The notes under the pieces are model-generated. The model saw only the letters and a program-made list of their open reading frames with translations. It was not told the origin of the DNA and made no database searches. A DNA stretch of 41,445 nucleotides, taken from Escherichia coli. Its GTDB lineage: Bacteria > Pseudomonadota > Gammaproteobacteria > Enterobacterales > Enterobacteriaceae. A program made the position numbers and the translations under genes. This document shows, in pieces, positions 5,421 to 15,511 of the stretch. The stretch lies in NCBI RefSeq assembly GCF_016903815.1, contig NZ_CP069975.1; one strand, written 5' to 3'. Numbering within the stretch: position 1 is the stretch's first letter; every line of letters starts with the position of its first letter.

Positions 5421-5776
5421 AGCACCACGTCCTGTGTGATAGTTATATCCCTGATACGAATGGATATTTTCAACTTATCAAAAGCATCTCCCTCGGCTAC
5501 TGACAAGCCAGAAATCGGTATGTCAGGTAAATCTACCGTCAGTTTTTGCAACAGCATTGCCTCAACCGCAATTTGAACATGCGACAAGTTGGTCGGTTCG
5601 TGTTTAAACTGCGGTAAAACATTGCCCCATGACGGATCTCCGTATACCTCACCCTGATAAGTGTTTAGCCACTCATATAAACGAGCGCCCCAGGCCTCCT
5701 CCTGGGACTCATACGTTTTTACGCCGGATAACTCCAGCGTCAGTAAAGGATCAATTTCATTATTGTTGGCCATCAA
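5417..5776 (-). CDS. Small morphogenesis protein (P1 PmgA-like by position)
   Basis: 119-aa ORF, translationally coupled on both sides. Confidence 0.5.
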   Translation of the reverse strand: MMANNNEIDPLLTLELSGVKTYESQEEAWGARLYEWLNTYQGEVYGDPSWGNVLPQFKHEPTNLSHVQIAVEAMLLQKLTVDLPDIPISGLSVAEGDAFDKLKISIRIRDITITQDVVL

Positions 5777-8700
5777 TCAACTCTCGCGTAGTCATTCATC
5801 AACGGATCATCAATTGACAGTGGCACCGTGCGCATAACGCCCGGTTGAGGCGTGCTGACCTTTACGACAGTTCCCTGGCCTTTCGCCGAGTCTTTAGTGT
5901 GCTCTTCAATCCTGGCAAGCAATGAGGTCATCTGCGCAAACAGCCGCTTCGTTTCACCATCAAGTGAAACGGTATTATCAGCCAACTGCATTGTCGGCTT
6001 GGCACCGGAGCCGCCAAGGTCACTAATAACCTGTCCGTCTATCTGCATACGACCGGTTGGTTGCTGCAAATCGTTGGCGGCAGTCGTCACCTGGGACGTG
6101 GAGGCTGGTTCAGGCGCATTATTTTTCCGCATCCCCGGCGAGTTGCGGAGTTTATCAAATAGTCCATCAATCCCCATTTGTGCGCCGAGTTGGTCAAAGT
6201 AACTTGAGTTGCTGGCCACCGGACGCGCCTCTTCAACTGGCATCGGAGTATCAACATACACATTGCCAGCTGCTGTTGCGGTCCCCTTCCCTCGTGCACG
6301 TTCTTCGAGCGTTCCCTGAACGACTTCCCGACGCATACCCCGGCCATTCATGAATTTGTTGACCAGATCGTTAACGCCAACAGCATTGCCAATTTTGTCT
6401 ACCAGACCGCCTTTCTCAAACGGGCTATCACCAGGGGTAAACGCCAGGCCAGTAGACTGATCGATAACAGCGTTATCAGGCAGTGGTCCCCTCACTCCAT
6501 ATTGCGCCCCACCCTGTGCTCCTGCTCCAGGTGTATAGATTTCACCACCTAAATAGCGAGCACGATGAGTATTGACCTTGATCGCGTACTCACGGTTTTC
6601 TTTCGATAAGTCACCTGTGCCTTTTTTCCACTTATTGATAGTGCCAAACCCAGCATTATATGCAGTGATGGCCTCGTTTAAGTCTCCATTGGCTTGCTTC
6701 AGATATTTGCTCATGAGAAGAGCCGCAGCTTCTGCCGATTTCACAGGATCAAACGATTCACCTTCAGCTAAGCCAGTCTCTTCACGAGCAATCCCCGTGA
6801 ACTGAAACATCCCCAGAGCACCGGTTTGGGATTTTGCATACGGATTACCACCAGATTCAGTTGCAGCAATCGCGTAAAGAGTGCCTTCTGGAAGACCGTA
6901 TTTATTCTCTAGTTCGGCAAAATACGGAGCCAACTTATCGAGATTTGCCTTACCTTCAGCGCCAAGACTTCCGACTTTTACATCCAAGTTGCCATTGTTG
7001 TAGGTATCCGCAGCTTTCTGAATGTCATTCCTGGTGCCAGTGGTATTAAGCGACGATGATGACGAGCTATTTTGACCAATAGCTTTATCAATTTTCTGCA
7101 ACGCGCTATTGCCCGTTTCTACGGCATTTGCATTGATAATCTGATTAGCAGTTTCTTTAACTGTTTTATTGCTATCTTTCGCCGTATCTAGGGATGCATT
7201 TACAACACGAGTGACAATATTAGCCTTTTTAGGGGTATATTCAGTCTTAGGAGCATTGTCCTCCTGACTTTCTTTAGCTGGTGTTTTTAATTCAGGTGTA
7301 ACCTCTTTCGCATCCGCTTTGTTGACTAGCTTTGATGCAACCCAGGCCACAGGGGTGCTCTGAACAGCGGCATCTGCAACCTCACCTGAAAGCTCTTTTG
7401 CGGCACTCCATAGATTACTGCCAGCTTCTTTAATGTATTTCCCTGGGTTCTTAATGAAATCAATTGCACTATCAATTGCATCACTGAAAACCTGTTTCAG
7501 GTTATCGACAGTAAAGAAGTTTTTGATGGCGTCTAATTTTTCGTTCAGGTTCTTTGTTGTGTCACTGAACCATGCTGAAATAGCATCACCAATCTTTGCA
7601 GTATAATCACTAAATGTCGTGGATATAGTATCACCAAGGTTAGAAATATATGTTTCTAAATTGGTAATCCCACTATCAATGGCCTGGGCAATACTTTCCG
7701 TCGAAAATGATTGCAACATATTGCCGATATCCTCAAATCCAAGTGATTTGAGAACGCCGCCAATGGCACTGCTAATACCAGATACCAGTCCTCCCATATC
7801 GAGAACGTTAGCCAGTGTATAAGCCGCTTTTTGCTGAAAAGATGGATCTTCCCCATCCTTAAGCCCAAAGGTCCGACGTTGTGCTTCTGTATCATTCCAA
7901 CCGGTTACCGCATCATAGATACCTCCAGCCACCGTGCCGACTAGCGGAATTGCGCGTAAAGCCCCCTTTGCAAGAGCCTTAACACCTAGTTTCCCCAATC
8001 CCTTAGTTGCAAGTTTTCCGGCACCGCGAGTAGCCAATTCGCCAGCTTCTTTGGCAGCAGCTTTTTTCCCACCAAAGCCCAATAAGCTTGCAACTTTTTT
8101 TATACCTAAAGCGCCTAGTGCCATCGAGCCAACTTTCTTTAGTACCCCACGGCCAAAAATAAGGGAAGCAATACCACCGGCCCCCTTCCCTAACAGGCTA
8201 AATAGTTTGGACAGCAAGCCGCCCTTCTTTTTCCCGGTGTTTTTGGCTATCTGATCAAGGGCGCTGAGAATCTTGTCATTGCCCTCTTTAATTTCGCTGG
8301 TCTGCTCCTGAAGTTCCTGAACCGTCCGTTTTTGGGTGTTAACCTGAACGACATCGGCACTATTTTGCGATTTACGCCTAAAAAAACCTTTTCTACGGCT
8401 GTTATCGTCATTGCCACGAATCACATCGGCAATAGACTTTCTGGCACCATTAAGCGATCCACCAACTTCTTTTGATATCCCGCCAAGCTCCTTCCCTGCT
8501 GCCCACAATGGACCAGCAACGGCATAACCTAACGCATCGACGGCACGAGTCTCTGAAGGGTTACCTATGCCTTCAGCTACTTTTGACAGTTTTTTTAATA
8601 AACCTGATTCAGCATTTAGACGCTCATCATCCTCTTTGCGCCTGGCCTTTTCAGCACGTTCAGCACGGACATCTTCCGCTGCGGCCTTACTCCCTGACTT

Positions 8701-9468
8701 TCCAATAAAACGACCACGCGCATCGCGTTGGTTTTGGCTTTTTTGCGCACCGCCTTTTTGATCGAACATTTCGCGAGCGTGTTCGGCTGCTTCGGTCCGT
8801 TGTGCCTTTATATCCTCTGATATAGCCTTCCTGCGTCTTTTTTTACCCTTTGGTGTAGTTGATTTGGCCTGCTGTTCCTCTTGAGCAATGCCCTCCTGAA
8901 CTACACGAGAAACGTCCCCTAAATTAAGCCGTTTCATTGCGTCAACAATAGGGTCTACTGATGGCGCATTGGCCACAAAGTCTGGCCGGGAATTTTCGAT
9001 TGTTCGATTTAATGCCGACACACTGCGAGATACTGGGTCAACCGTTGCAACGCGTCCCCCTCTCAAATCACGAGCGAGTTTGACCGTTTCTAACCGCTGT
9101 GCTTTAACATCCTCTGTTATTGCCTCTCTTCGTCTATTTGGGGGATTGTGCGCTGTTGGTGCAACCTGCTGTTCACGGTTAGTGACTTTGTCCTCCCGTA
9201 TACGAGAAACGTCCCCTAAATTAAGCCGTTTCATTGCGTCAACAATAGGGTCTACTGATGGCGCATTGGCCACAAAGTCTGGCCGGGAATTTTCGATTGT
9301 GCGATTTAATGCCGACACACTGCGAGAGACAGGATCAACAGTTGCAACTCGTTCCCCTTTCAAATCTTCAACAGCTTCCCGAATACCTGCAAGCTCTTCC
9401 AGCTCTTTCGCGCTGGCGGTTTCAACTGTCCTTATAACATCGTCAATATTGGCGTTTTTTCTTTCCAT
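5773..9468 (-). CDS. sit: Sit-like structural injection transglycosylase / tape-measure-like protein with soluble lytic transglycosylase domain
   Basis: 1231-aa ORF. SLT-family motifs visible: AATESGGNPYA, GALGMFQF, AYNAG. Gly/Ala/Lys-rich helical repeats typical of tape-measure-like proteins. N-terminal region contains a ~100-aa internal duplication. Confidence 0.85.
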   Translation of the reverse strand: MERKNANIDDVIRTVETASAKELEELAGIREAVEDLKGERVATVDPVSRSVSALNRTIENSRPDFVANAPSVDPIVDAMKRLNLGDVSRIREDKVTNREQQVAPTAHNPPNRRREAITEDVKAQRLETVKLARDLRGGRVATVDPVSRSVSALNRTIENSRPDFVANAPSVDPIVDAMKRLNLGDVSRVVQEGIAQEEQQAKSTTPKGKKRRRKAISEDIKAQRTEAAEHAREMFDQKGGAQKSQNQRDARGRFIGKSGSKAAAEDVRAERAEKARRKEDDERLNAESGLLKKLSKVAEGIGNPSETRAVDALGYAVAGPLWAAGKELGGISKEVGGSLNGARKSIADVIRGNDDNSRRKGFFRRKSQNSADVVQVNTQKRTVQELQEQTSEIKEGNDKILSALDQIAKNTGKKKGGLLSKLFSLLGKGAGGIASLIFGRGVLKKVGSMALGALGIKKVASLLGFGGKKAAAKEAGELATRGAGKLATKGLGKLGVKALAKGALRAIPLVGTVAGGIYDAVTGWNDTEAQRRTFGLKDGEDPSFQQKAAYTLANVLDMGGLVSGISSAIGGVLKSLGFEDIGNMLQSFSTESIAQAIDSGITNLETYISNLGDTISTTFSDYTAKIGDAISAWFSDTTKNLNEKLDAIKNFFTVDNLKQVFSDAIDSAIDFIKNPGKYIKEAGSNLWSAAKELSGEVADAAVQSTPVAWVASKLVNKADAKEVTPELKTPAKESQEDNAPKTEYTPKKANIVTRVVNASLDTAKDSNKTVKETANQIINANAVETGNSALQKIDKAIGQNSSSSSSLNTTGTRNDIQKAADTYNNGNLDVKVGSLGAEGKANLDKLAPYFAELENKYGLPEGTLYAIAATESGGNPYAKSQTGALGMFQFTGIAREETGLAEGESFDPVKSAEAAALLMSKYLKQANGDLNEAITAYNAGFGTINKWKKGTGDLSKENREYAIKVNTHRARYLGGEIYTPGAGAQGGAQYGVRGPLPDNAVIDQSTGLAFTPGDSPFEKGGLVDKIGNAVGVNDLVNKFMNGRGMRREVVQGTLEERARGKGTATAAGNVYVDTPMPVEEARPVASNSSYFDQLGAQMGIDGLFDKLRNSPGMRKNNAPEPASTSQVTTAANDLQQPTGRMQIDGQVISDLGGSGAKPTMQLADNTVSLDGETKRLFAQMTSLLARIEEHTKDSAKGQGTVVKVSTPQPGVMRTVPLSIDDPLMNDYARVD
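8900..9370. repeat. Direct duplication (300-bp period) within the 5' part of sit
   Basis: About 170 bp at 8900-9070 is near-identical to 9200-9370 (cgtttcattgcgtcaacaatagggtctactgatggcgcattggccacaaagtctggccgggaattttcgattgt present in both). Protein repeat RVATVDPVSRSVSALNRTIENSRPDFVANAPSVDPIVDAMKRLNLGDVSR occurs twice. Confidence 0.9.
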
Positions 9469-11067: not shown

Positions 11068-11689
<622 letters not shown>

Positions 11690-11692
11690 AGG

Positions 11693-12169
11693 TCATTTTG
11701 CGCGCTTCAGGCAGCCATCTTCAGGTGCCGCGTTGAAAAGCTCTGCGGCCTTACGTAGCGTAAATGTTGCGATTTTTTTTCCGTCTACGTATGCATCGAA
11801 TGTTTTAACTTCCATATCAGGGGTATCTGACCAAAAACCATACCAGTAACTATCACCCACAGAGGAACCGATAGAACTGATAGGATATTCATCATCACCA
11901 ACTTTCAGCGTTATTTGTTCTTTTTTAGCATCAAATGACTCACCGCCAGGTTCTGTTTTCATGAGAGTGAGTAGTCGTGTTCCTACTTGATTGGGATCCG
12001 TATTATTAAATCCAACATCGCACTCAAATGTAAGCGTATAATTATCTTTGCTGGAAACAGCATAAGAACGAACACCATGAGTCTCGCCGGTTGACCATTT
12101 GCTTACATTTGCCATTGATGAAAACGGAGTAAGCAAAGCAAGAACTAGTAAAAATCGTTTGATGCGCAT
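11693..12169 (-). CDS. Secreted protein with N-terminal signal peptide (sim-region gene)
   Basis: 158-aa ORF; N-terminus MRIKRFLLVLALLTPFSSMA is a typical Sec signal peptide. Confidence 0.6.
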   Translation of the reverse strand: MRIKRFLLVLALLTPFSSMANVSKWSTGETHGVRSYAVSSKDNYTLTFECDVGFNNTDPNQVGTRLLTLMKTEPGGESFDAKKEQITLKVGDDEYPISSIGSSVGDSYWYGFWSDTPDMEVKTFDAYVDGKKIATFTLRKAAELFNAAPEDGCLKRAK

Positions 12170-12220
12170 TAATTTATCTCCTTTGGATATTAATATTTTA
12201 ATTAGTTAACCACCATATAT

Positions 12221-12868
12221 TCACCATTCATAGGGTAAATTAAGCGCTTTTAAACCTTGCTGGAAAGTATTAAGAGATCCGTTTTTTTGTTGTTCCATTT
12301 TTTCGCGTGCAGCTTTCTCATACTGCTCCATCCGTTGGTTATACTCTTGCAATTCCTCCGGGGAGAGGTTTCCCATTGGGGAGTTTGTACCCGGCCCCCT
12401 GGCTCGTTCTTCAAGCGTACCCTGTACGTTTTGATGGCGCATTCCTGGGGCATTTCTTATTGAGTCAATGCCATTTCTTCCAACATCTTCTTTATTAACG
12501 GCATTGCTCGCCACCAGCACACCCCAGCTAGGGATAGCAAAATCAGGAGCGGTTTCGCATGCCTTTACCATATAATCGAAAGTGCTTCGATTGATCTCGT
12601 TTGCGTCGGGATTTAACAGGCTAGAATATTGATATTTAGCATTTTCGTTGGTTGCGACTTTATACAGTTCTTGCTGCACCATCGCTTCAGAAAGTTTAAG
12701 GCGTTTCATATCTGACAGTAACTTCTTGCGCATGGATTCGTCTTGACTGACAGCAAAGCCGTAAACGTGCCCAAGGTATTTCGTATAATCGGTACAAATC
12801 TCCTTTACGCTTGATGCTGCATTAACAGTCCCAGCCATAAATAATAACGGTAGTAATAGTTTTCTCAT
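12221..12868 (-). CDS. Sim-like superinfection-exclusion periplasmic protein (signal peptide; shares a segment with Sit)
   Basis: ORF track 12221..12895; start placed at ATG 12868 (GGTGAGG RBS) giving signal peptide MRKLLLPLLFMAGTVNAAS. Mature part contains NAPGMRHQNVQGTLEERARGPGT, matching Sit residues GRGMRREVVQGTLEERARGKGT. Location between the tube-region genes and the immI-like region matches P1 sim. Confidence 0.6.
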   Translation of the reverse strand: MRKLLLPLLFMAGTVNAASSVKEICTDYTKYLGHVYGFAVSQDESMRKKLLSDMKRLKLSEAMVQQELYKVATNENAKYQYSSLLNPDANEINRSTFDYMVKACETAPDFAIPSWGVLVASNAVNKEDVGRNGIDSIRNAPGMRHQNVQGTLEERARGPGTNSPMGNLSPEELQEYNQRMEQYEKAAREKMEQQKNGSLNTFQQGLKALNLPYEW

Positions 12869-12964
12869 TATAACCTCACCTGCCTTATAACTCATTTAGG
12901 GTACATATTTTCGCCTTTAAAAAAAAGAGGTTATTAGATCCAATTGTGTATTTATTAAGCATGC

Positions 12965-12981
12965 AATGCTCTAATAAATTT
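12965..12981 (+). promoter_or_regulatory. C1-repressor operator-like 17-mer overlapping the -35 of the immI-like promoter
   Basis: AATGCTCTAATAAATTT is 16/17 to the P1 C1 operator consensus ATTGCTCTAATAAATTT as I recall it. ATGCTC, 17 bp, TAAGTC forms a plausible -35/-10. Confidence 0.6.
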
Positions 12982-13139
12982 GTATTTTTAAGTCGCGAAT
13001 GCTATCTTTTCGCATCATATTGACCTTTTAATCGTTCAGGCTTATAGTTCCGCCGTCGTAGCAAATTCTGCGACCGGGTTTAGCAGCCTGAATACTTACG
13101 CGGACAACCGCAGATTTCCGATATTGCGGTATTTTTGTG

Positions 13140-13293: not shown

Positions 13294-13515
13294 ATGGTTA
13301 ATGCCAATCCTTGCGCACGCCAAGAATTCATCTGGCGTTTCTATTCCTGTAAAAAACACCACTATCACTTCGTTATCGCAGCAACAGAAGACGAAGCACG
13401 CTCTCAATTGCCTGATGGCCCCTGCATTTTTACTGCCCGTTTTTCAACTAACTCGCGCAATTCACTTAGTTACTGGAGCCTCCCCTTCTCTGCCGACGTT
13501 CAGGGGGGTTTATGA
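13294..13515 (+). CDS. icd: Icd-like small protein (interference with cell division), translationally coupled to ant
   Basis: 73-aa ORF; GAGG RBS 7 nt upstream; stop TGA overlaps the ant ATG (ATGA at 13512-13515). Confidence 0.6.
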   Translation: MVNANPCARQEFIWRFYSCKKHHYHFVIAATEDEARSQLPDGPCIFTARFSTNSRNSLSYWSLPFSADVQGGL

Positions 13516-14546
13516 AAACACCTCTCGTCACCCGTAATGAAATAGCCGAAGCGATCGCCTTGCATACTGCCTGTATGCCGACACGGGAGATCCCCGGCGC
13601 AATTGCTAACTATTTCATGATAACCAGACGTTTTTATACCCGAACAGATAAGGCTGTGATCAACAGGCTACTGATAGCCGAGATCAGGGATTATTTGATT
13701 GAACAAGGACGTCTACGTTACGCAACAGTGGCAGCAGAAATGAGAAAGGAGGCACATAGAATGACCGGTAATAATTTAAATGTTGAAAAACCAGCACCTG
13801 TTGCTTCAGCTACGCCAGCACCAGCCCTGAATGTCATCTCCAACACCGGAGACACAATCGACAGCCAAACATTGTTGAAGATGGTCAATGAGGCACGGAA
13901 ATTATGTAGCGAAAAACCAGTTCGCAACAATGATTTCATTGCCAGAGTTAAGGATGAGCTTGAAGGAGAAACCTACGAAATTTTCGTAGGTCAAAAAAAC
14001 GGCGCAGAAATAGATATTATAACCATGACCTACAAACAAGCCCTGCGAGTTGCCGCGCGCGAGTCAAAAGCGGTCCGCCGTTCGCTGATCGACAAACTGG
14101 AAGAATTACAGCAGGCAAACTCCCCTACCCCATCGATCCCCCAGACATTACCAGAAGCCCTACGCCTGGCTGCCGAGTTAGCAGAACAGAAAATGCAGTT
14201 GGAACAACAGCTGGTGGCCGCAGCCCCTAAAGTCGATTTTGCCGACCGGGTATCAGTGGCCAATGGAATCCTGATCGGGAACTTTGCAAAGGTCGTTGGA
14301 CTTAAGCAAAACGCCCTTTTCTCATGGTTGCGCCAGAATGGCATTCTCATGGCTTTTGGAGCGCGCAAAAACGTACCGCGCCAACAGTACATCAACGCCG
14401 GGTATTTCACGGTGAAAGAAGTGGTGCTGGATGATGAAAATGGCTACCAGATACGGCTGACGCCCCAATTAACGGGTAAAGGCCAGCAGTGGTTAACTCG
14501 CAAGCTACTTGATGCTGGTTTGTTAAAACCAGTAGCAATAGGTTAA
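13512..14546 (+). CDS. ant: Antirepressor Ant with C-terminal KilAC-type domain
   Basis: 344-aa ORF; C-terminal ~130 aa (LPEALRLAAELAEQK...GKGQQWL) is about 65% identical to the C-terminus of the downstream KilA-like protein. Confidence 0.7.
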   Translation: MKTPLVTRNEIAEAIALHTACMPTREIPGAIANYFMITRRFYTRTDKAVINRLLIAEIRDYLIEQGRLRYATVAAEMRKEAHRMTGNNLNVEKPAPVASATPAPALNVISNTGDTIDSQTLLKMVNEARKLCSEKPVRNNDFIARVKDELEGETYEIFVGQKNGAEIDIITMTYKQALRVAARESKAVRRSLIDKLEELQQANSPTPSIPQTLPEALRLAAELAEQKMQLEQQLVAAAPKVDFADRVSVANGILIGNFAKVVGLKQNALFSWLRQNGILMAFGARKNVPRQQYINAGYFTVKEVVLDDENGYQIRLTPQLTGKGQQWLTRKLLDAGLLKPVAIG

Positions 14547-14710: not shown

Positions 14711-15511
14711 ATGCAACAAACATTCAATGCGGATATGAATATATCAAACCTTCATCAAAATGTCGATCCTTCAACCACTCTGCCCGTTATTTGTGGTGTT
14801 GAAATTACGACCGACCGCGCTGGCCGTTACAACCTTAATGCTCTACACAGAGCGAGCGGACTCGGTGCCCATAAAGCGCCAGCTCAATGGCTAAGAACGC
14901 TGTCAGCAAAACAGCTCATCGAAGAGCTTGAAAAAGAAACTATGCAGAATTGCATAGTTTCGTTCGAAGGCCGTGGCGGCGGCACTTTTGCCCATGAATT
15001 GCTCGCTGTGGAGTACGCAGGCTGGATTTCTCCCGCGTTTCGGCTGAAGGTAAACCAGACATTTATCGACTATCGAGCCGGAAGATTACAACCTGCTATT
15101 CCGCAGAGTCTCCCTGAAGCTCTCCGTTTGGCTGCCGACCTGGCAGAGCAAAAGCAACGGCTGGAGCAAAAAATGCTTATGGATGCACCTAAAGTCGAAT
15201 TCGCCGAACGCGTTGCTACCGCCAGCGGGGTTCTAATCGGCAACTATGCCAAAGTGCTCGGCCTGGGCCAAAACTATCTCTTCACCTGGTTGCGTGATAA
15301 CGGAATTCTGATCGCAACCGGTGAACGCAGGAACGTCCCCAAACAAGAATACATATCCCGTGGGTATTTCACCCTTAAAGAAACCGTGATCGATACAAGC
15401 AATGGAAGCAGGATTTCTTTCACGACTCGTATAACCGGCAAAGGTCAGCAGTGGCTGATGAAGCGATTGCTTGATGCTGGTGTGCTGGTACCTGTCGCGG
15501 CAACGCGCTAA
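14711..15511 (+). CDS. kilA: KilA-like protein (KilA-N domain plus KilAC domain)
   Basis: 266-aa ORF; GGAGA RBS; N-terminal KilA-N-like segment; C-terminal domain paralogous to Ant. Confidence 0.7.
   Translation: MQQTFNADMNISNLHQNVDPSTTLPVICGVEITTDRAGRYNLNALHRASGLGAHKAPAQWLRTLSAKQLIEELEKETMQNCIVSFEGRGGGTFAHELLAVEYAGWISPAFRLKVNQTFIDYRAGRLQPAIPQSLPEALRLAADLAEQKQRLEQKMLMDAPKVEFAERVATASGVLIGNYAKVLGLGQNYLFTWLRDNGILIATGERRNVPKQEYISRGYFTLKETVIDTSNGSRISFTTRITGKGQQWLMKRLLDAGVLVPVAATR

Follow-up and report, generated by a model that had tools for sequence, protein, structure and literature searches.

The sim locus of a P1-like phage-plasmid (Punavirus) encodes a protein, here called ORF224, in which an earlier note had read a peptide shared with Sit, the tape measure protein (TMP) of the same element. 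Two questions follow from this reading: whether the resemblance is real and, if so, what a secreted protein might do with a piece of the phage's own injected protein. The analysis covered a window of 41,445 nt of E. coli DNA (NZ_CP069975.1), and all positions refer to that whole stretch. The segments compared were the following.

12221..12895, minus strand: simA-family gene ORF224, assigned by PHROG phrog_3933, the N terminus of P1 SimA and synteny
12365..12505, minus strand: Sit-like segment of ORF224, residues 131–177, NAVNKEDVGRNGIDSIRNAPGMRHQNVQGTLEERARGPGTNSPMGNL, from BLASTP, PHROG, codon alignment and profile-profile comparison
12437–12445, minus strand: GMR core of ORF224
5773..9468, minus strand: sit, TMP with SLT domain, 1231 aa, assigned by synteny with P1 sit
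6595–6900, minus strand: SLT domain (PF01464) of Sit, residues 857–958, E 2e-25
6259..6387, minus strand: Sit motif copy 1, residues 1028–1070, NAVGVNDLVNKFMNGRGMRREVVQGTLEERARGKGTATAAGNV, inside a conserved island (~1002–1070, or ~911–979 in P1 numbering)
6076..6180, minus strand: Sit motif copy 2, residues 1097–1131, QMGIDGLFDKLRNSPGMRKNNAPEP..., in E. coli-type Sit only, within a lineage-specific insertion

Residues 131–177 of ORF224 were aligned by BLASTP with residues 1028–1070 of Sit, giving 23 identities in 47 positions with one 4-residue gap (43.1 bits; E 7e-9 as a pair comparison with compositional adjustment). When all 91 window ORFs of at least 80 aa were compared with one another, the ORF224–Sit pair was recovered at E 5e-7 and was one of only two paralogous matches, the other being Ant/KilA. 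The Smith-Waterman score was 101, compared with 41 ± 5.6 and a maximum of 72 over 500 shuffles (z ~10.7), and the shared segment is not of low complexity. The Sit-family model phrog_2533 matched residues 137–180 of ORF224 (E 7.6e-8), with the match restricted to profile positions 928–972 of 1130, and in a profile-profile comparison of the family alignments (hhalign) the motif alone was aligned (24 columns, E 6.4e-6). No SLT match was found in ORF224 by profile search. With a partial phrog_2533 match, 24 hhalign columns and no SLT domain, ORF224 was rejected as a member of the Sit/tape measure family itself. Cognate pairs of ORF224-type protein and Sit in the genomes of other, divergent P1-like elements gave matches of 8e-8 (L003, Salmonella), 5e-9 (L067), 3e-4 (L005) and 2e-3 (L008); members of the Klebsiella and Cronobacter type have an 8–10-residue core alone in common with Sit, and BLAST finds no match for them. 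Chance or compositional similarity might be suspected for a segment as short as 47 aa, but the compositionally adjusted E value of 7e-9, the z score of ~10.7 and the recurrence in other genome pairs leave that explanation a negligible probability. Judged by these alignments, the shared peptide is true homology.

The DNA tells less. Both peptides and both 20-nt DNA strings of the earlier note were located where it had placed them, and the pairwise alignment of protein and DNA that it had proposed as a check gave a protein match far above chance in sequence that is not of low complexity. Its claim of a shared peptide is thereby borne out by the E value, the shuffled scores and the recurrence in other genomes. 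Its further claim of DNA similarity held insofar as the strings exist, but codon-aligned DNA of the two segments is identical at 75 of 129 nt (58%) and the same codon is used at 10 of the 23 identical residues, which is not evidence of a recent copy; the 18/20-nt DNA string reflects conserved QGTLEERA codons. A recent DNA copy or gene conversion was ruled out by the 58% nucleotide identity and the divergent codons. Given this identity and the diverged synonymous sites, the ORF224–Sit similarity reads as old and is maintained at the protein level.

For the identity of the carrier, three further features were needed.

12818..12868, minus strand: Sec-type signal peptide of ORF224, MRKLLLPLLFMAGTVNA, read from the sequence and conserved across the family
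12729..13093, no strand assigned: stretch ~95% identical to P1, comprising the simA 5' end and the upstream region to the c4 side
~12933–12959, within the ~95% P1-identical stretch: predicted promoter PsimA, as annotated in the P1 record

Translation of ORF224 is likely to start at the ATG at 12868 (M10), with GGTGAGG as RBS ahead of it; this would give a 215-aa precursor, the form annotated in the Ro157 record. The family model phrog_3933 matched residues 10–224 across its entire length (profile positions 1–213 of 213, E 1.9e-136), and several of the 22 homologous clusters carry the name 'simA domain protein'. P1 SimA (YP_006513, 'putative superimmunity accessory function') is a protein of 52 aa; its first 45 residues are identical to those of ORF224, as are 47 of the first 50. 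The two genes have locus, upstream sequence and signal peptide in common, and they differ in that P1 simA stops at codon 53 whereas the ORF224 frame runs on to 224 aa. At the DNA level, identity is ~95% over the first ~46 codons and over the upstream region as far as the c4 side; homology breaks near codon 46–57, where P1 has a stop codon, and the P1 simB start falls inside the simA remnant. In the alignment, the simB start codon of P1 (L001 8980–9170) stands opposite Met55 of the window protein (window 12700–12760). P1 simA looks like a truncated remnant of a full-length gene, and the break suggests that a simB/simC cassette replaced the rest of simA and the yfjT-family gene in P1. Taking together the N-terminal identity with P1 SimA, the decay of DNA homology at the P1 stop and the PHROG 3933 assignment, ORF224 is a full-length SimA-family member of which P1 keeps only a stump.

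P1 Sim (SimC) is a periplasmic protein credited with P1 superimmunity and exclusion. Its exclusion phenotype was reportedly described by Kliem and Dreiseikelmann in 1989 and by Maillou and Dreiseikelmann in 1990. SimC occupies the same position as ORF224, likewise has a signal peptide and is presumed to act at the envelope once the phage has adsorbed, but it has no sequence similarity to ORF224: no BLASTP match of ORF224 to SimC or SimB was found at E ≤ 10, and the PHROG families differ (14355 for SimC, 3933 for ORF224). In the P1 GenBank annotation, superimmunity is assigned to simC, with simB and simA as putative accessory genes. An identity of ORF224 as Sim (SimC) was therefore excluded by the absence of similarity, and the label 'Sim-like exclusion protein' given by the earlier note had to be replaced by SimA family; its description of a secreted carrier in the sim locus agrees with the typical Sec signal peptide predicted at the N terminus (MRKLLLPLLFMAGTVNA followed by ASS). 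Searches of ORF224 by sequence or profile found nothing in Pfam, NCBIfam, PADLOC or PDB, with 0 PADLOC families for ORF224 and ORF158 (the adjacent gene, described below) at E ≤ 0.1; a weak match to PTPlike_phytase (E 0.0034) was set aside as noise. The literature searched reports no exclusion activity for the SimA family, nor any SimA function.

Cleavage of the ORF224 signal peptide would be expected before ASS. The signal peptide is without a lipobox, and the N-domain contains two cysteines, C34 and C113, that are conserved across the SimA family, a pair that fits a periplasmic protein. On these grounds ORF224 would be periplasmic. Its expression in the lysogen is presumed. In the protein, an N-domain leads into the Sit-like motif, and a helical tail comes last; as the profile-profile alignment is confined to the motif, the N-domain, by this comparison, is not derived from Sit.

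The surroundings of the gene also correspond to those of the P1 sim operon. Positions 11600–13100 of the window are 98.6% identical to phage vB_EcoM-Ro157c2YLVW, and a two-gene cassette (11693–12895) is 100% identical to E. coli plasmid NZ_CP103764.1. The second gene of the cassette is

11693..12169, minus strand: secreted YfjT/YkfB-family gene ORF158 (PHROG phrog_3429), always present downstream of the simA-family gene.

Genes on the minus strand are in the order sit, pmgB, tub, pmgC, ORF158, ORF224, after which comes the c4/icd/ant immunity region on the plus strand. The location between immI (c4/icd/ant) and pmgC is the position of the sim operon in P1, which likewise codes for signal-peptide proteins, and every context found for a simA-family gene was a P1-like element with the gene between the immI region and pmgC. 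The simA-family and yfjT-family pair was found at the sim locus in P1-like elements of Salmonella, Klebsiella, Cronobacter and E. coli; among 5,426 complete E. coli genomes, 254 had a partial match to the cassette and 78 had most of its length. At the sim locus, a recombination hot spot, several mosaic joints are present, and the sim region is described in the literature as a variable hot spot of P1-like elements.

Two further observations were made along these gene orders. On a metagenome contig from a distant P1-like phage (L069), bplB is followed directly by pmgC-tub-pmgB-sit with no immI or sim region beside bplB, and the Sit of this phage retains the GMR motif as the variant NAPGMRHQVATGSMADRAYG. 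In the window, the Ant1-like and KilA-like ORFs (13512–14546 and 14711–15511) are paralogous (52% identity over 200 aa, E 1e-64), and both genes are labelled anti-repressor family in the P1 record.

In Sit, the motif lies ~70 residues past the SLT domain and has the consensus G-G-L-V-D-K-I-G-x3-G-V-x-D-L-V-x-K-F-M-N-x-R-G-M-R-x-x-V-V-Q-G-T-L-x-x-R-A-x-G. Conservation of the island is 0.73–0.85 per 10-residue block, compared with 0.25–0.46 in the flanking linkers, and Sit proteins with an SLT module of another type still keep the island. No match was found in a Pfam search of the motif region. The second motif copy (GIDGLFDKLRNSPGMRKNN) is shorter and resembles GIDSIRNAPGMRHQN of ORF224. Sit has been treated as the TMP in previous work (PMC9024508, PMC12810830) and was unresolved in the P1 cryo-EM work (PMC12810830). 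From these reports and the TMP topology of other phages, the SLT domain and the island, near the C-terminal end, would be expected to be the first part out of the tail tip and into the periplasm.

Sit also varies internally. A direct repeat inside sit (window 8902–9069 and 9199–9366; 168 nt, 95% identical, start-to-start spacing 297 nt) lies in the part encoding the N-terminal region and makes the window protein 1231 aa long, compared with 1140 aa in P1; related loci encode Sit proteins of 1118 to 1271 aa. As Sit is the tape measure protein and its length varies, the phages may have tails of different length. Each P1-like Sit protein has one of two clearly different SLT modules (residues ~822–1000), for instance of the window/P1 type or of the P0024/L003/L010 type, and either module is continued by the same conserved downstream module, which starts near TGLAFTPGDSPF; this amounts to mosaicism inside the tape measure gene.

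The ORF224 motif reads G-x-V-x-K-E-D-x-G ... N-[AS]-[PR]-G-M-R-x-Q, extended by x-V-Q-G-T-L-E-E-R-A-R-G. All SimA-family members have V-L-V-A-x-x-x-V/I-x-K-E/D-D-x-G ... N-[AS]-[PR]-G-M/V-R-x-Q after the N-domain, and their tails differ completely beyond this core. The continuation x-V-Q/E-G-T-L-E-x-R-A-R-G is present in the window type, the Salmonella type L003 and L067; L041 has a degenerate version with a Cys-containing tail; and in Klebsiella, Cronobacter and Salmonella types the core is followed by P-S-x-x-S and then one or two Cys-containing modules. The conserved peptide is 25–45 residues long. A 172-aa allele, found in ten IMG/VR loci, ends ...ERARGPGVAP, four residues past the motif, and DNA alignment placed its recombination joint exactly after ERARGPG. 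This end and this joint indicate that, at the sequence level, N-domain and motif behave as a conserved unit. Downstream of the same allele (loci L027–L038; L029 8455–9300 against window 11600–12440) stands a very different yfjT-family allele. Proteins P0002–P0008 from Logan assemblies (205 aa) look like versions of the window tail that are frameshifted, which may be due to assembly errors or to real variation near GGGGG and CCCC runs.

Across the SimA lineages, pN/pS was 0.31 in the motif and 0.21 in the N-domain, with synonymous sites near saturation (pS ~0.8), so that both parts are, by these ratios, under purifying selection. These values bear on the possibility that the motif is a functionless relic, a piece of sit or simA captured by illegitimate recombination. 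A hot spot with several mosaic joints is a place where such a capture could occur, and the second, lineage-specific motif copy in the insertion of E. coli-type Sit would suit it as well. The core, however, is invariant in family members whose synonymous sites are nearly saturated, it is kept in tail-swapped alleles with the joint directly after the motif, and codon usage differs between the paralogous copies; a relic is accordingly considered very improbable, and relic and chance remain a slim prospect even when taken together.

A 50-residue motif profile searched against 1.84 billion cluster representatives retrieved 9 proteins at E ≤ 1e-3, each of which was a Sit-like or SimA-like protein or a fragment of one; no host protein and no other phage family was found in this search. 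With nine clusters confined to these classes, the motif is, as far as the profile reaches, exclusive to the Sit and SimA families and not a generic domain.

These observations can be brought together in a model in which ORF224 acts as a periplasmic decoy that interferes with incoming Sit and thereby has a role in exclusion, a reading to which we assign a probability of about 0.4. The SimA-family protein would be a product of the variable sim locus, made along with a secreted YfjT-family protein, and Sec export would bring it in soluble form to the periplasm. Following its helical N-domain, it would display a short linear motif homologous to the post-SLT island of Sit, the part of Sit that would enter the periplasm on tail contraction. 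Resident ORF224 would then present the same epitope as the incoming Sit and would either occupy a periplasmic or inner-membrane partner that Sit needs or pair with a matching surface of Sit. Cell-wall passage or channel formation would be blocked in either case, and DNA entry of superinfecting P1-like phages would stop. The more general proposition, that SimA-family proteins are TMP mimics blocking P1-like phage DNA entry via the Sit 'GMR' epitope, is put forward with more doubt.

Homology, family assignment, export signal, conservation and motif exclusivity are the established points of the decoy model; an exclusion phenotype for ORF224 and the identity of its partner are conjectural parts of it, and mimicry or competition is compatible with all of the findings. 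In favor of the decoy would be the motif match, significant in this genome and independently in others, the exclusivity of the motif, the core kept throughout the SimA family, purifying selection, the conserved island of Sit, the 172-aa allele, the position of the sim operon with its signal-peptide proteins and the ~95% P1-identical upstream region, and, by analogy, the precedent of exclusion proteins that act on the tape measure. Against it, the annotated Sim activity of P1 belongs to the unrelated SimC and P1 simA is truncated, PADLOC, Pfam, NCBIfam and PDB gave no match, the AlphaFold2 models are of low confidence, covariation is not significant, and the core in the Klebsiella and Cronobacter types is limited to 8–10 residues.

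Structure prediction of the shared segment, another check proposed at the outset, yielded low-confidence models and, in these monomer jobs, no interface. The AlphaFold2 model of the SimA-family protein (11-sequence alignment) was helical and unreliable (mean pLDDT 43, pTM 0.28). For the C-terminal 410 residues of Sit, the SLT domain alone was modeled confidently; the motif region (pLDDT ~35–57) came out as a flexible stretch with two or three short helices, and the monomer models showed no confident packing of the motif on the SLT domain. Covariation between the ORF224-type motif and that of its own Sit was examined in 8 lineages and gave permutation p values of 0.26–0.79. By eye a correspondence is suggestive, with APGMRHQ present in both proteins of L005, L044 and L067, but the permutation result gave co-evolution of the two motifs no significant support. 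Window-type SimA was found with the 'NSPGMRK' allele of Sit copy 2 in a ratio of 16:3, compared with 6:6 (Fisher p 0.056, uncorrected for linkage), an association that is borderline and confounded by linkage. A G-S-M-A variant is common to a divergent SimA-like protein (P0030, ...GMRHQAVKGSMAERARG) and a divergent Sit (P0029, ...GMRHQVATGSMADRAYG). P0030 occurs only on contigs of 1.0–1.2 kb and the P0029 contig is without a sim locus, so the two cannot be placed in one genome, and the shared variant, which would look like a compensatory change, was set aside.

The same data bear on a different mode of antagonism, in which the motif is a self-association element of the TMP oligomer or a pseudo-ligand for the SimA N-domain. 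ORF224 would then co-assemble with, or capture, ejected Sit and act as a dominant-negative subunit instead of competing for a third partner. Tape measure proteins form oligomers and, once ejected, refold into a channel, the short helices predicted for the motif in its flexible region would suit such a role, and the motif is exclusive to the Sit and SimA families; neither the monomer structure models nor the covariation analysis lends support, and direct poisoning of Sit is judged rather improbable.

The partner gene raises another alternative. ORF158 is 33–58% identical to genes of related loci marked as PF27224 YfjT and 24% identical to K-12 YfjT (E 6e-12), and PGAP gives the YfjT-family name to its counterpart in the identical plasmid NZ_CP103764.1; a Pfam profile search of ORF158 itself gave no match. 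No pieces of virion proteins were found in ORF158, P1 SimB or P1 SimC, and SimB and SimC are without a Sit-like segment. The YfjT family also occurs in non-P1 prophages: in CP4-57 of K-12 (L070 8682–9616), yfjT is preceded by yfjS, which encodes an inner-membrane lipoprotein unrelated to SimA, so that an unrelated prophage shows the same layout of an envelope protein followed by a YfjT-family protein. The searchable literature gave no function for YfjT.

A secreted YfjT-family partner that is always present, and a family that also stands beside an unrelated lipoprotein in CP4-57, would suit a role for ORF224 as a lysogenic-conversion or envelope-modifying factor with an incidental effect on superinfection. 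The motif would then be a common address tag without antagonism, binding a periplasmic component (peptidoglycan, a chaperone or an envelope protein) that Sit and the SimA-family protein need for separate, unrelated jobs. That the motif adjoins the peptidoglycan-cleaving domain of Sit and that no covariation between the two motifs was detected also speak for this explanation. A general envelope partner, however, predicts the motif elsewhere, yet it is confined to two families of one phage group, and the locus position and upstream sequence correspond to the sim operon of P1. On balance a shared address tag is regarded as unlikely.

The decoy model has relatives among known exclusion systems. 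TP-J34 Ltp and HK97 gp15 are exclusion proteins acting on the TMP, and T4 Sp inhibits the gp5 tail lysozyme. With Sp, the proposed role of ORF224 would have in common the cell-wall-penetration step, in that the motif adjoins the Sit SLT domain; there is no homology. To our knowledge, TMP mimicry has not been described for exclusion, and no mention of the SimA–Sit similarity was found in the searchable literature. T4 Imm is an exclusion protein that binds the T4 TMP (bioRxiv 10.64898/2026.03.06.709160). Imm, Ltp and gp15 resemble the role proposed for ORF224 as phage- or prophage-encoded envelope proteins that stop DNA entry via the incoming TMP, but these membrane proteins or lipoproteins bind a TMP to which they have no sequence resemblance, whereas the ORF224 candidate, as its sequence predicts, would be soluble and periplasmic and carries a copy of the TMP peptide.

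A peptide common to an injected TMP and a secreted protein of the sim locus provides a handle of ~40 residues in each protein. If mimicry is true, it would be a new principle among TMP-targeting exclusion systems, and it would pinpoint residues ~1002–1070 of Sit as engaging an essential partner during passage through the periplasm. It would also help to account for the variability of the sim locus, which is among the highest of any region in P1-like phage-plasmids; across Enterobacteriaceae these elements are widespread vehicles of resistance genes.
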